DNA from: Solirubrobacteraceae bacterium
Lineage (GTDB): Bacteria > Actinomycetota > Thermoleophilia > Solirubrobacterales > Solirubrobacteraceae
Reading direction: 5' to 3'
DNA: 64,000 nt
NCBI GenBank assembly: GCA_030681525.1
Contig: JAUXSD010000344.1
Location: 1,342 to 65,341, forward strand
Shown here piece by piece: positions 1-63,618 of the stretch. Both the position numbers and the translations under genes were made by a program. Position 1 is the first letter of the stretch, and the number at the start of each line of letters is the position of its first letter. The notes under the pieces were generated by a model, which had not been told where the DNA came from, ran no database searches, and saw nothing but the letters and a program-made list of their open reading frames with translations.

Positions 1-1227
1 TCGGTCTGGTTCGACGCCGACGCCGAGGTCTCGGCGCGGTCGGAAGCGCCGTTCGAGCCGACCGAGCCGGGCACGGTGCTCGAGGACGACGCCCTGTCGC
101 GGGACGCCGCGCCGCCGCCGCCGGCGGAGCCGCCGCCACCGCCGCCCGGGTCGTCGCCGGCCGGCTCGCCGGCGTCGGGCTCGCCCCGGAAGCGGATCCC
201 CGTCGGCGCGCGCGTGCTGCTCGGCCTCGCCGCGCTCGGCAGCGTCATCGCGCTGGCGCTCGTGCTCCTCGGCGGGGATGGTGACGACACGGAGCGCGCC
301 GACCGCCCGACATCGCCCCGAGCGGGAACCGACGCGAACGCCGGACCCTGGCGCGAGATCGGCGCCGCGCCGACGGCACGCCAGCAGGTCGCGACGGCCG
401 TGGTCGACGGCCGCATCTGGGTCGTCGGCGGCCTCGTCGGGACGAAGAAGGCCGCCGCGACGAACCGCGTGGAGTCCTACGATCCGACGATCAACTCGTG
501 GAGCAGCGCGACGCCGCTGCCGCGCCCGCTGCATCACGCCACCGCCGTCGCCTACCGCGGCGAGCTCGTCGTGATCGGCGGCTGGGAGCCGAAGGGCTCC
601 AACCTCACCGCCGTCGCGTCGCGCGAGGTCCTCGCGCTGCGCGACGGGCGCTGGGTGCGCTACGCGCCGCTGCGCCATCCGCGCGCCGCGGCGGCCGCGG
701 CGGTCGTCGACGACAAGATCGTCGTCACCGGCGGTCAGGCCGACGGCAAGCTCGTCCGGCAGACGGAGTTCCTGCCCGGGGGCGTCGTGTGGAAGCAGGG
801 CGCGGACCTGCCGACGCCGCGCGAGCATCTCGCGGTGGCGGCGGACGAGGACGGCCGCTTCCTCTACGCCGTGGGCGGGCGCGACCTGTCGCCCGACAGC
901 AACACGCGCGCGCTCGAGCGCTACGACATCCGCGACGACCGCTGGACGAAGCTTCCGAGCATGCCGGTCGCCAGCGGCAGCCTCGGCGCGGCGTTTCTCA
1001 AGGGCCGGGTCGTCGCGATCGGCGGCGAGACCTCGACGGGCGTGATCAAGAGCGTGCAGTCCTACGGCGTGAAGTCCCGGCGCTGGTCGCAACTCGCCGC
1101 GCTGCCGACGCCCCGCCACGGGCTCGGGGTTGCCGCCCTCGGCGACACGCTGTACGCGATCGGTGGCGCGCTCGGCGCGGGGCATCTCGCGTCGACCGAC
1201 AAGGTCGAGGGCCTCGACCTGCGGTGA
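1..1227 (+). CDS. Membrane-anchored Kelch-repeat (beta-propeller) protein, 5' end outside the window
   Basis: Frame 1 is open from base 1 with G/C-ending codons, so the listed GTG at 76 is probably internal. The product has a Pro-rich linker, one TM helix (VLLGLAALGSVIALALVLLGG), then six Kelch-like blades (RIWVVGG, ELVVIGGW, KIVVTGG, FLYAVGGR, RVVAIGGE, TLYAIGGA). Confidence 0.75.
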   Translation, partial: SVWFDADAEVSARSEAPFEPTEPGTVLEDDALSRDAAPPPPAEPPPPPPGSSPAGSPASGSPRKRIPVGARVLLGLAALGSVIALALVLLGGDGDDTERADRPTSPRAGTDANAGPWREIGAAPTARQQVATAVVDGRIWVVGGLVGTKKAAATNRVESYDPTINSWSSATPLPRPLHHATAVAYRGELVVIGGWEPKGSNLTAVASREVLALRDGRWVRYAPLRHPRAAAAAAVVDDKIVVTGGQADGKLVRQTEFLPGGVVWKQGADLPTPREHLAVAADEDGRFLYAVGGRDLSPDSNTRALERYDIRDDRWTKLPSMPVASGSLGAAFLKGRVVAIGGETSTGVIKSVQSYGVKSRRWSQLAALPTPRHGLGVAALGDTLYAIGGALGAGHLASTDKVEGLDLR

Positions 1228-2772: not shown

Positions 2773-4065
2773 TTGGACGAGGGGCAGGTACGCGGACGGC
2801 TGGGTGGGGACGTGGAGCAGATCATCCTGCGGACCGTCGCTGCGCATGCCGACTCGCTGCTGCGCACGGCGCGCCGGTTCTCGCTGTGTCCCGACGACGC
2901 GCAGGACGCCTATCAGCGCACGCTGGAGATCTTCATGGCGCACGCCGACCGGCTCGACCTCGAGTCGGCCGCGGGCTGGCTGCACGTCGTCGTCAAGCGC
3001 GAGGCGCAGGCGATCTGCCGCTCGCGGGGGCGCTGCGTCGCGTCCGACGCCGTCGACTTGGACGCCTACGAGGCGCGCTGCGCCCCCACCAGCGACGAGC
3101 GACTGGCCTCGTTGGATCGGGTCGGCCGAGCGGCCGAGGCGTTGCAGCGCCTCAAGCCGCAGGAGCTGCGCGCGCTCTGGCTGAAGGCCCAGGGCCACAG
3201 CTACAACGAGATCTGCGCGCTCACCGGCTGGTCGTACACGAAGGTCAACCGCTGCCTGACCGAGGGCCGGCGCAGCTTCCTGACGCGCTACGCGACGATC
3301 GAGTCGGGCGCCGAGTGCGAGCGCTGGCTGCCCGTGCTGTCGGCGATGGTCGACGGCGAGGCGCCATCCGAGGAGGTGGTCGCGCTGCGCCCGCACCTGC
3401 GCAACTGCCCCGGCTGCCGCGCCACGCTGCGCACGCTGCAGACGAGCGCCGAGCCGCTGGCGGCGGTGCTGCCGATCCCGCTCGCCGGCGCGGTCGTCAC
3501 CGGCGAGGATCCGCTGACGCACTTCATCACCCGCGTCTACGAGACGATCGTGGGTGGCGTGCACGAGCGCGCGATCCATTCGTTCACCAAGGCGCAGACC
3601 GCCGTCGAGGCGGCGTCGGCCGGCAAGCTCGCCGCGGTCGCGGCGTCCGCCGCCGCCGTGGCGGGCGGCGGCTACGCGACCGTCGAGCGCACGGTTCCGG
3701 CGGTCCGCGGTCACGACAAGCCGGCGAAGGTGATCTCCCGCGAGCCCGTCAGCGATCCGAGCCCGACTGTGCCGGTGGCGACCTCCTCGCCGCCGGCCGC
3801 GCGCAACGCCGCGCCGGGCAAGACGACCAAGCCGGCCAAGCGCCCCCGCGCGGAGTTCGCTGCCCCGGTGCGCCGGGCGAAGACCACGTCGCCGGAGTTC
3901 GCGACATCCGGCGCGCAGGCCACCCAGTTCACGCGCGCCGCCGCCGTCGACTCGAGCGCGGCCGCCGCGCCTTCGCGTCCGTCCACTCGGTCCACTCCGT
4001 CCCCGCCGCCGCCTCGGGCGCCCGAGTTCGGCGGGGCCGCCGCCGCGCCCGAGTTCGGCGGTTGA
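2773..4065 (+). CDS. ECF-type sigma-70 factor fused to a zinc-finger anti-sigma (ZAS, HxxxCxxC) domain, a TM-like segment and a Pro/Ala-rich tail
   Basis: Region 2 ([26 protein letters not shown]) and region 4 HTH ([36 protein letters not shown]) are both present. They are followed in the same polypeptide by [16 protein letters not shown]...[18 protein letters not shown] run sits 7 nt before the TTG start. Confidence 0.8.
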
Positions 4066-58137: not shown

Positions 58138-58509
58138 TCAGGCGTCGATCTGCGCGCGAAACGCCGACGCGGGGAACGTGCTCGCGCCGGCGGCATGGAC
58201 CTGCTGTGAGAGCACGCCGTCGGAGGTGACGACGCGCACCGACGCCGGGTCCGGCGCCGCGCGCACGCGCCGGACGATCTCGTCGTCGGCCGAGTTGGCC
58301 CGCGGGCGCTTGGCGTGGGCGACCTCGATGACGCTCGACACGATCGGCGGGCGCGGCGGCTGCTCGAAGACGACCATGACGTCCTCGCCCTCGGCGGCGG
58401 CCCAGCGCTCGAGCCGGTCGACGAGTGCCACCATCGCGGCGTGGCGGTCGCGCCACCAGCCGTCGGGACGGGTCCCGATGACGTTCATGCCGTCGACGAT
58501 CCAGCGCAT
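58138..58509 (-). CDS. NYN-domain (YacP/Rae1-like, PIN-related) predicted ribonuclease
   Basis: MRWIVDGMNVIGTRPDGWW... then a SADDEI acidic motif and VVTSDGVL near the C-terminus, which is the YacP-like pattern. Confidence 0.7.
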   Translation of the reverse strand: MRWIVDGMNVIGTRPDGWWRDRHAAMVALVDRLERWAAAEGEDVMVVFEQPPRPPIVSSVIEVAHAKRPRANSADDEIVRRVRAAPDPASVRVVTSDGVLSQQVHAAGASTFPASAFRAQIDA

Positions 58510-59439: not shown

Positions 59440-60777
59440 TCAGTCCTTGTAGGGATCGAACGTGTCCGCGCCGGCCATCGCGACGCCGATCGGCGTCAGC
59501 CGGTGGAGGATCTCGACCGAGTCGCCGTGCATCGCGAGCACCGCGTCGAGGCGCTTGTACGCCGCGGGCGCCTCGTCGGCGGCGCCGCCGCGCAGCTCCA
59601 CACCCGCCGTCGCGAGCTGCTCCTGCACCAGGGCGAAGTCGATCTCGCCGGCCTTGATGCGCCCGCGGCGCTTGACCATCCGCCCGCCGGGGTGCCGCGG
59701 GCAGAGCGTGAAGCGGTCGTGCTCGCCGACGCCGGCGCGGTCGCGCTCGTGGCGGTACTGCGCCCACGTCACCCAGGTGGGGCAGTCGCGCTCGGAGCAC
59801 TCCGCGCGGTTGCCCATCCGCCCGGCCGCCTTCGTGCGGGACATGACGCGACCCGCGCCGTGGACCGTCGAGAACAGCAGGCCGGCGCTCTCGTCGCTCG
59901 CGGTGCCGCGCAGGATCACCGACGGCTCGCCCATCGTCGCGCCGACGAAGCCCTCCTGGCCGGGGAACGCCGGCGTGCAGCCCTTGCGGATGACCCAGGC
60001 ATCGACGCCGTGGTGGCGCTCGCGCCAGGCGAAGTTGTGGTGGTTGTGGACCTCGTAGGTCGCCGTCGCGCCGAGGATCTCGAGGACCTTGTCGACGACG
60101 ACGTCGCGGCCGGCGTAGGCGTACTCGCCGGCGAGGCTCATCGCCGCGATGTAGTCCTGGCCGAGCTGCGAGTCGACGTGCAGCAGGACCGGCGGCGAGT
60201 CCATCTCGCCGTCGGGGCCGCGCTCGTCGAAGCGCCGTCCGGCGGCGAGCGCGAGAAAGCCCGACGCGGTCTTGTGACCGAACCCGCGGGAGCCGAAGTG
60301 CACGCCGACCCAGACGTTGCCGTCATCGCCCGCGAACAGGTCGACGTAGTGGTTGCCCGCGCCGACCGTGCCGAGCTGGTTGCGGGCCATCTGCACCATC
60401 CGGCGCTGCGGCGCGAAGTCGGCCTTGTGGATGGCGTCGAGCACGGGGTGGTCGACCGGCTCGGCGTTGTTGCGCCCGACGCCGAACGAGATCCGCGCGA
60501 ACACCTCGTCCATGATCCGCGGCAGGTCGTCGCGGATGTCGTCGACGCGCACGTCGGTGCGGACGGCCTTGTTTCCGCACGCGATGTCATACCCGACGCC
60601 GGACGGCGAGACGTGCTCGGGGTAGGCGACGACGCCGCCGATCGGCTGGGAGTAGCCGACGTGGCCGTCGGCGCAGATCGCCGCGGCGACGGCGTCGCCG
60701 GCCTCCGCGCAGCGGCGCAGCTGGTCGACGGCGCGCGGCTCGATGTCGCCGCGGACGGTGATCGGGATCTCTGCCAT
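59440..60777 (-). CDS. rtcB: RNA 3'-phosphate/2',3'-cyclic phosphate ligase RtcB (with a Cys/His-containing insertion)
   Basis: Start at the internal ATG (MAEIPITVRG). CADGHVGYSQPIGGV, GYDIACGN, GTVGAGNHYVDLF, HFGSRGFGHK and VHNHHNF motifs. Insertion ECSERDCPTW...LCPRHPGG. Confidence 0.92.
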   Translation of the reverse strand: MAEIPITVRGDIEPRAVDQLRRCAEAGDAVAAAICADGHVGYSQPIGGVVAYPEHVSPSGVGYDIACGNKAVRTDVRVDDIRDDLPRIMDEVFARISFGVGRNNAEPVDHPVLDAIHKADFAPQRRMVQMARNQLGTVGAGNHYVDLFAGDDGNVWVGVHFGSRGFGHKTASGFLALAAGRRFDERGPDGEMDSPPVLLHVDSQLGQDYIAAMSLAGEYAYAGRDVVVDKVLEILGATATYEVHNHHNFAWRERHHGVDAWVIRKGCTPAFPGQEGFVGATMGEPSVILRGTASDESAGLLFSTVHGAGRVMSRTKAAGRMGNRAECSERDCPTWVTWAQYRHERDRAGVGEHDRFTLCPRHPGGRMVKRRGRIKAGEIDFALVQEQLATAGVELRGGAADEAPAAYKRLDAVLAMHGDSVEILHRLTPIGVAMAGADTFDPYKD

Positions 60778-60803
60778 GCGGTCATCGTGGCAAGCGCGGC
60801 GGC

Positions 60804-60884
60804 GCGCGGCGAGCGGATTCGAACCGCAGCGGACGAGGGTTCGAACCCACGGGCGTCTGGACCGGCGTGCCAACCGTTCCGCGC
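60804..60884 (-). ncRNA. tRNA-like element with two T-loop motifs in the rtcB 5' leader (not a canonical tRNA)
   Basis: On the minus strand, GGGTTCGAACCC (60837-60848) and GCGG-TTCGAAT-CCGC (60813-60827) are followed by an acceptor-like GCCGCGC that can pair with the 5' GCGCGGA. No anticodon arm can be drawn by hand. Confidence 0.35.
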
Positions 60885-61073
60885 ACGAATTTCGCCTTGC
60901 CACGCGGCGACACGTGCTTTACCGTGAGCGCAGTCATGCTCTCCCAGGCCGACACGACGATGCTGCTCATCCACGGCGCCCTCAGCGCCGGGTTCGTCTC
61001 GTGCAAGCCGGTTGACGAGCCTGCACAGCGCACCAACGACGCGGCCGACGCGGCTTAGCGGGAGACCTCTCAC

Positions 61074-62261
61074 ATGGCTCCCGCGACGATCGCGGGAGCT
61101 GCGCCTCGTGCCCGGACCGGGCGTGGGGCGGGGTGGGACCGCGACTCCATCATCATCGCCATCCGTGAGTGGGTGGCCACATACGGCGAGCCGCCTCGTG
61201 CGGCCGACTGGAACCCCTCCTCGGCGAAGTGGGCCGGCCAGCTGTGGCGCGTGGAGCGCTACCGCGAGGGCCGTGCCGACGGGTCGCCCTGGCCCGCGCT
61301 GAACTCGGCCAAGCGCCCGTTCGGCGGGTCGCTGAACGAGGCGATCCGGGCGGCCGGCTACGAGCCGGCGCGGCCGGGTCCGATGCGGCGTGCCGACGTC
61401 GATCCGCAGCAGGCGCACCGGGCGGTCATCAGCCCGGAGGGTCGGGCGATGGTCGCGGCGGCACTCGCGCAGGCGCGTGACGCCGAGCGGCGCGTGGCGC
61501 AGCTCGAGGCGCGGCTGGATCGGGCCGGCGAGCGGGCGCTGCGGGCAGCCGCGGAGCGCGACGCCGCACGGCGGGCCGGCGGCCGATCGGCGGCCACCAA
61601 GCCGAAGGTCGTTCGTGAGCGCGTCGTCGACGACGCGGCGCTCGCCCGCGCCCAGCGCCGGGCGGCCGCCGCCGAGGCGAAGGCCGAGACGACCATCCGT
61701 GACGTCCGCGAAAAGTGCGCGGAGGCGCGGATGGACGCGGCCGAGGCGCGCACGGCGGCCAAGCGGATGGCGGCGAAGCTCGAGCGGGCGGAGGCGACGA
61801 TCGGGACGCTGCGCGGCGAGCGCCGCGAGCTCAAGGCGGCCGGCGACCGGCTGGCCGACGAGCTCGTGGTCGCCGAGCGGCTGCTCGAGCGGGCGCGCGC
61901 CGACGCCGAGCAGGCACCGGCGGTCGTCACCGTGCGCCAGCAGGCGCCCGAGGCGGCCGAACTGCACGCCGCGCGCGTCGCGGCGGCACGTGACCGCCGG
62001 GCCGCCGCCGAGGCCGAGCTGCGGGCCGCCCGCGCCGAGCGCGAGCTGCGCGAGACGGTGTCGGCGCTGCGCGGCGAGGCGCGGCGGCTGACGCCGGCGG
62101 AGCTCGCCGAGCTGCGGATGACCGGCCCGAGCGGCCCCGCCGTCATGGCGGAGGCGCTGCGGCTGCTCGCCGCGGCCCGCAAGACCAACAACCCGACGCA
62201 CATGCAGGAGGCCCTGCGGCGCGTCGCCCAGGCCGCCGTCACCTGGCAGGAGCGGATCTAG
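61074..62261 (+). CDS. Homing-endonuclease-associated-repeat (HEAR) domain protein with a long Ala/Arg/Glu coiled coil
   Basis: WDRDSIIIAIREWVATYGEPPRAADWN...RPFGGSLNEAIRAAGYEP matches the HEAR pattern. About 300 aa of heptad-like AEAR-rich sequence follow. GGGAGA lies 9 nt before the ATG. Confidence 0.7.
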   Translation: MAPATIAGAAPRARTGRGAGWDRDSIIIAIREWVATYGEPPRAADWNPSSAKWAGQLWRVERYREGRADGSPWPALNSAKRPFGGSLNEAIRAAGYEPARPGPMRRADVDPQQAHRAVISPEGRAMVAAALAQARDAERRVAQLEARLDRAGERALRAAAERDAARRAGGRSAATKPKVVRERVVDDAALARAQRRAAAAEAKAETTIRDVREKCAEARMDAAEARTAAKRMAAKLERAEATIGTLRGERRELKAAGDRLADELVVAERLLERARADAEQAPAVVTVRQQAPEAAELHAARVAAARDRRAAAEAELRAARAERELRETVSALRGEARRLTPAELAELRMTGPSGPAVMAEALRLLAAARKTNNPTHMQEALRRVAQAAVTWQERI

Positions 62262-62377
62262 CCCCCCGGGGTCCGCTCCTGCCGGGGCGGCGGACCAGCG
62301 GTGTGTCGAATGCTTCGCGCCCAGCGCGAACGATTCGACACACCACCCGCCGCAACCGAACCGACCTGGTGCACGGC

Positions 62378-62839
62378 ATGACCTCTCGCCTGACCGAAGA
62401 CTTCCTCCGAGACGACGCGGGCTCACCGCTCGGCCCCGGCATGCCGAGCGGTGCGCCGCTGCGCGCCGACGGCCAGTCGCACTACGACGCCTGGCAGGCG
62501 CTGCTGCGGCGCGATCCCTGCTCGTACTGCGGGGCGATCGGCGCCGCGGGCACGGTCGACCACGTCGACCCGCGCTCGCGCGGCGCGCGCGGCCTGGGCA
62601 CCGTGCACGGCTGGATCAACATCGCCGGCGCGTGCTCGCGCTGCAACGGGTCCAAGCGCGACCTCGAGCTGCTCGTGTTCCTCTATCGCCGTCGCTGGCA
62701 GGGCCACGCCGCCCGCCCCGGCGAGCCCGCGCGCGCGCCGCGGCGCAGCGTGCGCCGGTGGCCCCATGAGGCCACCGCCCACCTGCGGGTGGGGCGGGCC
62801 GGCCGCCGCGCGCGCGTCGATACGGTGACGCCACCGTGA
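62378..62839 (+). CDS. HNH endonuclease (start ATG 62378 or 62441)
   Basis: CSYCG...VDHVDPRSRG...HGWINIAGACSRCNGSKRD (Cys4/HNH pattern). Confidence 0.75.
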   Translation: MTSRLTEDFLRDDAGSPLGPGMPSGAPLRADGQSHYDAWQALLRRDPCSYCGAIGAAGTVDHVDPRSRGARGLGTVHGWINIAGACSRCNGSKRDLELLVFLYRRRWQGHAARPGEPARAPRRSVRRWPHEATAHLRVGRAGRRARVDTVTPP

Positions 62840-63618
62840 CCGGATCGATCCACAGCCGCGAGGCAGACGACGAGCGCGCCAGGCAGGTCGCCGAAGGCGG
62901 GCTGATCCTGCGCGGTCTGGTCGGATCGACCGTGCACGGGCTGGCGAACCCCGGCACGGACGACCGCGACGAGATGGGCGTCTGCATCGAGCCGCCCGCC
63001 TACGTCATCGGGCTGCGCGGGTTCGAGCACTACGTCTCGCGCACGCAGCCCGAGGGCGTCCCGTCCGGTCCCGGTGACCTCGACCTGACGATCTACGGCC
63101 TGCGCAAGTTCTGCCGTCTCGCGCTGAAGGGGAGCCCGACGGTGCTGCTGCTGTTCTTCGTCGAGGGTGAGCATGTGCTGACGCGAACGCCGACGGGCCA
63201 GCGGCTGCAGCAACTCGCGCCGGCGTTTCTCTCCCAGCGCACGGGGCGGGCGTTTCTCGGCTACCTCGAGGCGCAGCGGCGCAGCCTGCTCGGCGAGCGT
63301 CACGCGACGCGCACCCGCGAGCTGTCGGCGCAGCACGGCTACGACACGAAGTACGCGATGCACGCGCTGCGGATCGGCGTGCAGGGCATCGAGCTGCTGC
63401 GGACGGGTCGCATCACGCTGCCGGTGCCCGAGCCCGATCGCGACCGCCTGCGCGCTGTCCGCGCCGGCGACGTGCCGCTGGGCGACGTGATCGAGCAGCT
63501 CGACGACGTGACGGCACGCCTCGAGCAGCTCACCGCCGAAAGCGGGCTGCCCGCGTTCGCGGACGCCGAGCGGGTCGACCGCTTTCTCGTCGATGCCTAT
63601 CGCGAGGCCTGGGACTGA
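62836..63618 (+). CDS. Minimal Pol-beta-fold nucleotidyltransferase (YcgL/PF10127-like)
   Basis: GS-x-DxD pattern LVGSTVHGLANPGTDDRDEMGV, followed by a helical domain (YDTKYAMHALRIGVQGIELL). The GTG overlaps the HNH stop (GTGA). Confidence 0.65.
   Translation: MTGSIHSREADDERARQVAEGGLILRGLVGSTVHGLANPGTDDRDEMGVCIEPPAYVIGLRGFEHYVSRTQPEGVPSGPGDLDLTIYGLRKFCRLALKGSPTVLLLFFVEGEHVLTRTPTGQRLQQLAPAFLSQRTGRAFLGYLEAQRRSLLGERHATRTRELSAQHGYDTKYAMHALRIGVQGIELLRTGRITLPVPEPDRDRLRAVRAGDVPLGDVIEQLDDVTARLEQLTAESGLPAFADAERVDRFLVDAYREAWD

Follow-up and report, generated by a model that had tools for sequence, protein, structure and literature searches.

The window analysed here, a 64,000-nucleotide (nt) stretch of a Solirubrobacteraceae contig (JAUXSD010000344.1, positions 1,342 to 65,341), carries on its minus strand rtcB, which encodes an RNA ligase, and divergent from it an operon consisting of a 40-amino-acid (40-aa) open reading frame (ORF), the coiled-coil gene ORF395, an HNH gene and the gene of the nucleotidyltransferase RlaP (Table 1). 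Between rtcB and this operon lies an 81-nt element that a first-pass annotation had described as a tRNA-like structure with two tandem T loops in the 5′ leader of rtcB. The sequence was found exactly at the place and on the strand given, 27 nt from the rtcB ATG.

The two copies of the T-loop consensus, referred to below as box 1 and box 2, are indeed present and are the only exact matches to GGTTCGAAYCC in the 64 kb. Both lie within 60815-60848 at a spacing of 22 nt, and the second does form the reported GCGG/TTCGAAT/CCGC fold, with a 4-bp stem. Exact matches numbered three (the palindromic box 1 being counted on both strands) against 0.06 expected, a count reached by none of 100 shuffles, and no further site was found in the window even with one mismatch allowed. 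The box motifs are real and occur above chance.

Conservation was assessed in relatives, whose loci are designated by L-numbers; the close set consists of 16 distinct rtcB upstream regions with RtcB identities of 77-95%. GGTTCGA is present in 15 of the 16 rtcB-ORF395 intergenic regions and is the joint most widespread 7-mer there. Of the 16 distinct relatives, 11 have box 2 between -48 and -51 relative to the start codon, and in eight distinct sequences (the window included) box 1 precedes box 2 by 8-11 nt. The core of box 1, GGTTCGAACC, was retained in eight of the nine relatives having this box, which forms a perfect palindrome of 20 bp in L089 and one of 16 bp in L173, and which carries single uncompensated mismatches in other lineages. 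In box 2, 10 of 11 positions are nearly invariant and the N59-equivalent position takes all four bases. Pairwise identity of the boxes was 91%, versus 71% at the fourfold-degenerate sites of rtcB (chance identity there being 49%); the spacer 5′ of box 1 was unalignable between the same genomes, and nucleotides 1-25 of the element were without conservation among the relatives. The boxes are thus under purifying selection, and the proposed cloverleaf is not constrained; given this selection, a promoter-proximal role at the DNA level is the most likely one.

Departures from the two-box pattern were of several kinds. Box 1 is absent from L094 and from L095/L175, which have box 2 only, and box 2 is degenerate in L089, L091 and L092. 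An extra box copy on the opposite strand occurs in L090 and L176, and L001 (74% identity) has an inverted copy only; inverted copies could be tolerable for a near-palindromic DNA site. In L093 (2845-2945), ~95 nt with a long hairpin of their own (GGTGGGTGTGTCG…CGACACACCCCC) lie between box 1′ and box 2, and the boxes are therefore separable without loss of either. L091 harbours three tandem ~60-nt repeats (…GTGCACCCATTGGGCTGCCTGCCCAACCAGTGCACACGCC…; ~3560-3760) in an enlarged rtcB-ORF395 spacer, and its degenerate T-loop box reads GGTTCGGTTCC. A further box, GGGTTCGAGCCC, was observed at L090:6594-6605 and L092:6776-6787, between ku and gltB and 130-140 nt upstream of gltB; its flanks differ between the two genomes, in both of which ku is located just downstream of rtcB. 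This box may represent a further occurrence of the cis element. A coding role of the boxes, either in an in-frame GTG extension of rtcB (a 487-aa ORF) or in opposite-strand ORFs, was considered and is ruled out by spacer indels of 13, 1, 2 and 3 nt between close relatives.

Genuine tRNA genes were found at the corresponding place elsewhere. In 32 related loci (RtcB mostly 56-61% identical), a tRNA gene lies upstream of rtcB in the same orientation and stops 15-50 nt short of it, with its T loop at -37 to -69 (mostly -42 to -52) as compared with -48 to -51 for box 2; these genes score 50-68 bits on the Rfam tRNA model. The rtcB-proximal tRNA is mostly Cys(GCA), preceded by Arg(TCG) or Gly and then by Leu(CAG), with Arg(TCG) directly adjoining rtcB in L023, L113, L129 and L136, and Gln, Pro, His or Tyr elsewhere. 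The 22-nt spacing of the boxes equals that between the anticodon loop and the T loop of the L129 tRNA-Arg(TCG). Moreover, nucleotides 26-75 of the element aligned to nucleotides 20-68 of this tRNA with 37 of 49 positions identical (none of 300 shuffles reached the score), and tRNA-Arg(TCG) was the best of 380 tRNAs both for the window element and for L173. A search of 2.9 million viral contigs with the two-box pattern returned 14 matches, all within real tRNA genes: 12 of them combine the anticodon arm with the T arm, and in the other two (a tRNA-Ser) box 1 falls in the variable arm. Taken together, box spacing, tRNA-Arg alignment and viral matches indicate that both boxes come from a single tRNA; they are the anticodon arm and the T arm of one former tRNA-Arg(UCG)-type gene, the anticodon loop of which has been reduced to the 6-nt palindromic centre of box 1. 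The element is therefore tRNA-related and conserved upstream of rtcB in relatives, as had been supposed, but its boxes are not two tandem T loops, box 1 being at the anticodon-arm position in the Rfam alignment (described below), in the viral tRNAs and in the tRNA-Arg comparison.

Intermediate states also exist, since an intact tRNA is still present in L002 (71% identity) and L097 (67%). In L022 (~3900-3975), tRNA-Arg(TCG) survives upstream of rtcB only from its anticodon loop through its 3′ end; this remnant is identical to the intact L019/L023 gene from CGAACCCGG onward, its 5′ side is unrelated and lies beside an opposite-strand gene, and it is an independent truncation at the same tRNA. 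The context of Rsr, Y RNA and rtcB invoked by the first-pass annotation was apt, in that sister lineages carry rsr, tRNAs and rtcB in this order: Ro60/Rsr (TROVE plus vWA domains) is encoded upstream in 25 of these 32 loci, sometimes together with arrays of 7-17 tRNAs. For example, L019:1-5335, L016:1-5302 and L104:2020-7025 each present an operon-like series of tRNA array (7-17), Ro60/Rsr, Leu(CAG), Arg(TCG) or Gly, Cys(GCA) and rtcB; only 1 nt separates the final two tRNAs in some cases, and a Shine-Dalgarno sequence precedes rtcB, which begins 15-50 nt further on. Transfer RNAs flank rtcB on both sides in L104, and no Y-RNA family was detected in sister-clade loci of this type. Mycobacterial VapC toxins cleave Leu-CAG and Cys-GCA among other tRNAs, and the tRNAs of the sister loci may be spare tRNAs coupled to repair. 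Directly upstream of rtcB in L020 (3869-3973) is a 105-nt tRNA-like gene (45.5 bits on the Rfam tRNA model; missed by ARAGORN) with acceptor, D and T arms of tRNA-Arg type and a long insertion where a normal anticodon arm and variable region would be expected. Either a tRNA with an intron or a derivative resembling a Y RNA could account for it. No earlier description of the rsr/tRNA/rtcB layout in Thermoleophilia was found, the main comparative survey of RNA-repair operons being outside the comparison.

In a genome of ~73% G+C, a T-loop consensus and G+C-rich ends are insufficient for a tRNA-like fold. ARAGORN predicted no tRNA gene in the whole window nor any in the upstream regions of the relatives, and Rfam at gathering thresholds gave no match in the window, so that neither tool assigned the element to a tRNA, transfer-messenger RNA (tmRNA) or Y-RNA family. 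A permissive Rfam search (E up to 10) over 601 nt returned no Y RNA; its only relevant match was tRNA-Sec, which spans exactly 60804-60884 at 18.6 bits (E=0.59; gathering score, 47) and places box 1 on the anticodon arm rather than on the T arm. At the same permissive threshold, no tRNA-clan match was found in the relatives' upstream regions. The first-pass annotation had proposed that the 5′ GCGCGGA pairs at 6 of 7 positions with the 3′ end: this pairing is present, but it was equalled or bettered by 45% of shuffles of the upstream stretch, found no consistent partner across seven relatives, and was paired in 52% of cells versus 39-49% for slid controls, hence at chance level and not conserved. 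Pair counts in the relatives were 87.5% for the box 1 hairpin and 75% for the box 2 stem. Nevertheless, the covariation score of the acceptor plus two-hairpin structure was reached by 157 of 500 shuffles, which amounts to no signal, and RNAalifold on eight relatives returned only a pairing of box 1 with box 2, which is trivial because box 1 is self-complementary, with an unfavourable covariation term. Thus, aligned upstream regions of the relatives showed conservation of the boxes but no covariation. Folding energy was close to that of shuffles (z = -0.98 for 81 nt; z = -0.50 for 111 nt).

Individual arms gave a similar picture. A D arm with a conserved D loop was not found in the region 5′ of box 1, which is unalignable and includes a 13-nt indel, and the tRNA-like fold with a D-loop GG that had been suggested is not borne out, there being no cloverleaf and no covariation. 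Neither was a canonical anticodon arm with a 5-bp stem and a 7-nt loop found: the 7-nt register gives only two to three pairs, and the conserved register of box 1 is a 6-8-bp stem around the 6-nt TTCGAA centre. The T-arm loop consensus GTTCRANYC is present and conserved, on a stem of 4 bp in the window and of 2-5 bp, uncompensated, in the relatives; pairs of the box 2 stem beyond the two G-C pairs are retained in about half of the cases. A conserved closing helix of the 5′ and 3′ ends, of the Ro60-binding type, was not found, and tblastn with Thermoleophilia Ro60 gave no match in the 64-kb window or in the loci of the window's clade, in agreement with the earlier statement that Rsr is missing at this locus. 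By its sequence, the element appears to be neither a tRNA, a tmRNA nor a Y RNA.

Between box 2 and the start codon, all the relatives conserve the pattern CT(G/C)GCC-N17-CA(C/G)(G/C)AT-N6-7-ATG/GTG. The -35-like hexamer is TGGCCA/G/C in most of them, and NANNAT followed after 6-7 nt by ATG or GTG was found in 17 of 18 sequences (CACGAT, CAGGAT, CACCAT, GAGGAT and TATGCT). In all relatives measured, box 2 ends 2-3 nt before the -35-like hexamer and lies at a fixed 25-26 nt from the -10 hexamer, the rest of the spacer having indels. The ATG contained in CACGATG is not in frame in every genome. Before rtcB no Shine-Dalgarno sequence was found in the window's clade, whereas the sister clade has AGGAGG. 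Such a geometry of hexamers and start codon is the architecture of actinobacterial leaderless promoters. The conserved hexamers near the start codon, combined with the lack of a Shine-Dalgarno sequence, suggest that the rtcB mRNA is leaderless, in which case the remnant, at roughly -38 to -80 with box centres near -43 and -64, would precede the transcription start and would probably not belong to the rtcB 5′ leader where it had been placed. On the other side of the intergenic region, the blocks GCAAG and ACCGTAA are conserved around the putative promoter of the divergent operon in two alignments of relatives. Readings of the boxes as a LexA/SOS box (TCGAAC-N4-GTTCGA) or as -35 and -10 elements of extracytoplasmic function sigma-factor type were dropped, as the spacing read from the sequence did not fit.

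We tentatively propose, with a little less than even confidence, that the tRNA remnant was co-opted as a promoter-proximal DNA element serving rtcB. The ancestral state would have been an intact tRNA-Arg(UCG)-type gene directly upstream of rtcB, with rsr further upstream; the window's lineage would have lost rsr together with the acceptor 5′ strand and D arm that made up the 5′ third of the tRNA, the divergent operon now occupying the lost side. The anticodon arm would survive as the TTCGAA-centred palindrome of box 1 and the T arm as box 2, while rtcB would be transcribed leaderless from the -35/-10 pair that starts 2-3 nt after box 2, and the boxes would control it as binding sites of a regulator or as UP-like A/T patches. 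A DNA role is made the most likely one by the fixed position beside the -35 hexamer, the above-neutral conservation, the near-palindromic form and the occurrence of either orientation in outliers.

Several observations weigh against this proposal. The substitution profile of box 2 (G53, T54, T55, C56, R57, A58 and C61 kept, N59 free and Y60 semi-free) agrees exactly with the profile of an RNA T loop; in a DNA site such agreement would have to be fortuitous. The spacing between box 1 and box 2 is 19-22 nt, and 117 nt in L093, which is loose for cooperative DNA binding; with no other box copy in the window there is no regulon there; ORF395 has no recognisable DNA-binding domain, nor is a DNA-binding protein recognisable nearby; and a generic scan for sigma-70 promoters and terminators returned nothing at its threshold. 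In addition, most of the resemblance to tRNA-Arg comes from the two TTCGAA-type loops.

The box 2 profile is what would be expected if the boxes acted as RNA, in a long rtcB leader or in a small RNA from a distal promoter, where a T-loop hairpin, with or without the anticodon-arm-like hairpin, would mimic a tRNA fragment as a sensor, a decoy, a substrate of nucleases that target tRNA or a handle for RtcB or RlaP. Box 2 obeys T-loop constraints at each position, N59 alone being free; pairing of the box 1 hairpin is high across relatives, RtcB and RlaP are tRNA-repair enzymes, and a possible -10 element is offered by a weak A/T-rich patch 5-12 nt beyond the GCAAG block. Stem mismatches on the rtcB-sense strand are more often G.T than A.C (15 versus 3), although composition confounds this count, T being more frequent than A, and may account for part of it. 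There is also precedent in bacterial Y RNAs, which carry T arms and of which Deinococcus radiodurans Yrn1 has a 6-nt "anticodon loop" (PMC4201824). On the other hand, no covariation was detected and folding energy was no better than that of shuffles, about half of the stem pairs beyond the GG/CC of box 2 are lost, the scan found no terminator, and an RNA lacking acceptor and D arms would offer no handle to RNase P, RNase Z or the CCA-adding enzyme. Moreover, the opposite-strand copies in L001, L090 and L176 are not T loops in rtcB-sense RNA, and the leaderless promoter geometry is conserved precisely between box 2 and the ATG. We therefore regard an action as RNA as rather improbable, and slightly more so its specific form, a minimal tRNA-Arg-derived RNA module that would consist of an anticodon-arm-like hairpin and a genuine T loop, would be expressed from a distal promoter ahead of rtcB, would report or absorb tRNA-nuclease attack or recruit RtcB/RlaP, and would be a Ro60-independent counterpart of the Y RNAs. 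For a working non-canonical tRNA or a Ro60-binding, YrlA-like Y RNA, little would speak besides the T-loop consensus, the weak tRNA-Sec match over exactly 81 nt and the rtcB neighbourhood; with nothing returned by ARAGORN, by Rfam at the gathering threshold or, in relatives, at E up to 10, with a 6-nt loop in the conserved register, acceptor pairing at chance level and rsr not found in window or clade, a working tRNA or Y RNA is effectively refuted and its probability close to nil.

The boxes may alternatively have no present function, their apparent conservation stemming from the youth of the clade or from mutational or gene-conversion effects. Single uncompensated stem mismatches in each lineage, the degenerate box 2 of L089, L091 and L092, the missing box 1 of L094 and L095 and the comparable truncated tRNA remnants upstream of rtcB in sister loci, such as L022, would all suit a neutral relic. 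Such a relic is nonetheless unlikely, as the boxes clearly exceed synonymous sites and the unalignable adjacent spacer in conservation, 15 of 16 lineages have retained the A/T-rich core in a genome of ~73% G+C, and 10 of 11 box 2 positions are almost invariant while one has changed repeatedly. tRNA genes are common integration targets, and the attR scars left by integration start in or near the anticodon arm. The first-pass annotation had offered as its alternative relic tRNA 3′ halves from old integration events; the two boxes would then be separate 3′ halves, left as attachment-site (att) scars by successive mobile-element integrations into a tRNA gene adjoining rtcB. The remnant does start near the anticodon arm as an attR scar would, the L022 breakpoint lies in the anticodon loop and an HNH gene is nearby, but the 22-nt spacing is that of arms within one tRNA and not of two T arms, box 1 aligns to the anticodon arm, neither an integrase nor an intact partner tRNA was found in the window or in the 4-kb flanks of the relatives, and both flanks are syntenic across the clade, including the housekeeping genes dnaJ, prfB and secA. 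Successive integrations are accordingly a very improbable source of the boxes. Of the alternative as it was offered, the notion of a tRNA-gene relic stands and comes closest to the origin, whereas the relic is of one tRNA rather than of two 3′ halves and its boxes are constrained.

The genes around the element form an RNA-repair module, as rtcB is accompanied by RlaP, which adds one to two nucleotides to damaged RNA 3′ ends and aids in restoring repaired tRNA (PMC12776372). RtcB has more than 120 protein homologues, and homologues of the identical length of 445 aa were found at up to 95% identity; the window was assigned to Solirubrobacterales-like Thermoleophilia. The Pfam model matches RtcB in three stretches, and relative to it residues ~325-395 contain a Cys/His-containing insertion (…CSERDCPTWVTW…CPRHPGG…) that may be a clade-specific zinc-binding insert. 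Downstream of rtcB, often after a SnoaL-like gene, is a gene with a YacP-like NYN nuclease domain, which the window shares with 11 of the 18 loci of closest relatives for which downstream sequence exists; its product is possibly a further RNA-processing partner of the module. In all clade loci (RtcB identity of at least 77%) with enough upstream DNA, ORF395 and rtcB are divergent; ORF395 is restricted to the window's clade. Its product begins with ~125 residues that hardly vary among >120 homologues (76-94% identity) and continues as a long Ala/Arg/Glu coiled coil. ORF395 was considered as a regulator acting at the boxes, and this candidate was not sustained: Pfam and NCBIfam assigned it to no family, and AlphaFold2 yielded only the coiled coil plus an N-terminal domain of low confidence (predicted local distance difference test (pLDDT) scores of 32-57). 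The stop codon of the 40-aa ORF overlaps the Shine-Dalgarno sequence of ORF395 (TAGCGGGAGG). Identity of the 40-aa product by tblastn was 46-94%, and only 46-58% where RtcB is 85-87% identical; this fast divergence makes its coding status uncertain.

Table 1. Features of the rtcB locus in the 64-kb window.
Feature	Position	Strand	Remarks
YacP-like gene	58138-58509	-	NYN nuclease domain, PF05991
rtcB	59440..60777	-	RNA 3′-phosphate/5′-OH ligase, 445 aa; PF01139, E=1.6e-64
Putative rtcB -10 hexamer, CACGAT	60784..60789	-	6 nt before the ATG
Putative rtcB -35 hexamer, TCGCCG	60807..60812	-	starts 2-3 nt after box 2
81-nt element	60804-60884	-	last nucleotide 27 nt before the rtcB ATG (60777)
tRNA remnant	element nt 26-75	-	D-stem 3′ strand, anticodon arm, variable loop and T arm; tRNA-Arg(UCG)-like
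Box 2, exact match GGTTCGAATCC	60815-60825	-	GGTTCGAAYCC consensus
Box 2 (M2), TGCGG-TTCGAAT-CCGCT	60812..60828	-	T-arm-like, 4-bp stem
Box 1, exact match GGTTCGAACCC	60837-60847	-	GGTTCGAAYCC consensus
Box 1 (M1), CGTGGG-TTCGAA-CCCTCG	60834..60851	-	near-palindrome or hairpin with 6-nt centre; anticodon-arm position of the former tRNA
Putative divergent promoter, TTGCCA-N17-TACCGT	60897..60925	+	for the 40-aa ORF/ORF395 operon
40-aa ORF	60936..61058	+	called in most relatives; calls of 38-42 aa occupy this position in L081-L092 and L175
ORF395	61074..62261	+	N-terminal domain plus long coiled coil; no family
HNH endonuclease domain protein	62303..62839	+	PF01844, E=2.1e-6
RlaP	62836..63618	+	RNA-ligase-associated Pol-beta nucleotidyltransferase; PF10127, E=4.3e-26

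The closest counterparts of the element are the intact tRNAs of sister Thermoleophilia (L016, L019, L023, L129 and others), with which it shares position, strand, T-loop offset and arm spacing. These tRNAs are full cloverleaves (50-68 bits), are followed by a Shine-Dalgarno sequence before rtcB and are likely co-transcribed with it, whereas the window element has lost the 5′ third, has a 6-nt loop, matches no model, lacks rsr and adjoins a putative leaderless rtcB promoter. tRNA remnants are commonplace at rearrangement breakpoints, and att scars and tRNA pseudogenes resemble the element in being partial tRNAs without the 5′ portion at such a breakpoint; they differ from it in that here no integrase, island or partner tRNA was found and purifying selection is apparent. 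In eukaryotes, the B box (GGTTCGANNCC) is T-arm-coding DNA that is bound by TFIIIC and serves as an RNA polymerase III promoter element, and is thus an instance of a DNA sequence encoding a T loop that works as a protein-binding promoter element; we know of no bacterial counterpart.

Bacterial Y RNAs (YrlA, YrlB and D. radiodurans Yrn1) share with the element a tRNA-derived T-arm module near rtcB and, in Yrn1, a 6-nt loop. They possess a Ro60-binding helix and a D arm or acceptor-like stem, accumulate as stable transcripts and are encoded at most ~4 kb from rsr (Chen et al. 2014, PMC4201824), while the Ro60-binding helix, the D or acceptor arm and a nearby rsr were not found for the window element. 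Operons of rsr, Y RNA and rtcB, as well as tRNA-mimicking Y RNAs, were already known (PMC4201824). In Anabaena, direct-repeat operators of the TrcR regulon lie upstream of rtcB and of a long tRNA array (PMC8421152, PMC10272220), so that in cyanobacteria both the link of rtcB to tRNA arrays and the control of rtcB by short promoter repeats are known (PMC8421152). The likeness consists in short repeated boxes at an rtcB promoter and in the linkage of rtcB to tRNA arrays; however, the Anabaena repeats are unrelated in sequence, overlap the -10 element and the transcription start and have a known repressor, whereas the window boxes are tRNA-derived and lie upstream of the putative -35 hexamer.

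The novelty is therefore modest and lies in a conserved tRNA-Arg remnant placed against the rtcB promoter in Solirubrobacterales and in the rsr/tRNA/rtcB layout of Thermoleophilia relatives. To our knowledge, little has been established about rtcB regulation beyond the RtcR system of proteobacteria. In Thermoleophilia at large, rtcB and tRNA genes are physically linked, and in one order the adjacent tRNA has been reduced to two selected boxes at the promoter. If the boxes act as RNA, they would constitute a minimal tRNA mimic coupled to RNA repair; if they are regulatory DNA, they would provide a clean bacterial case of a tRNA gene fragment reused as promoter architecture of a tRNA-repair gene.

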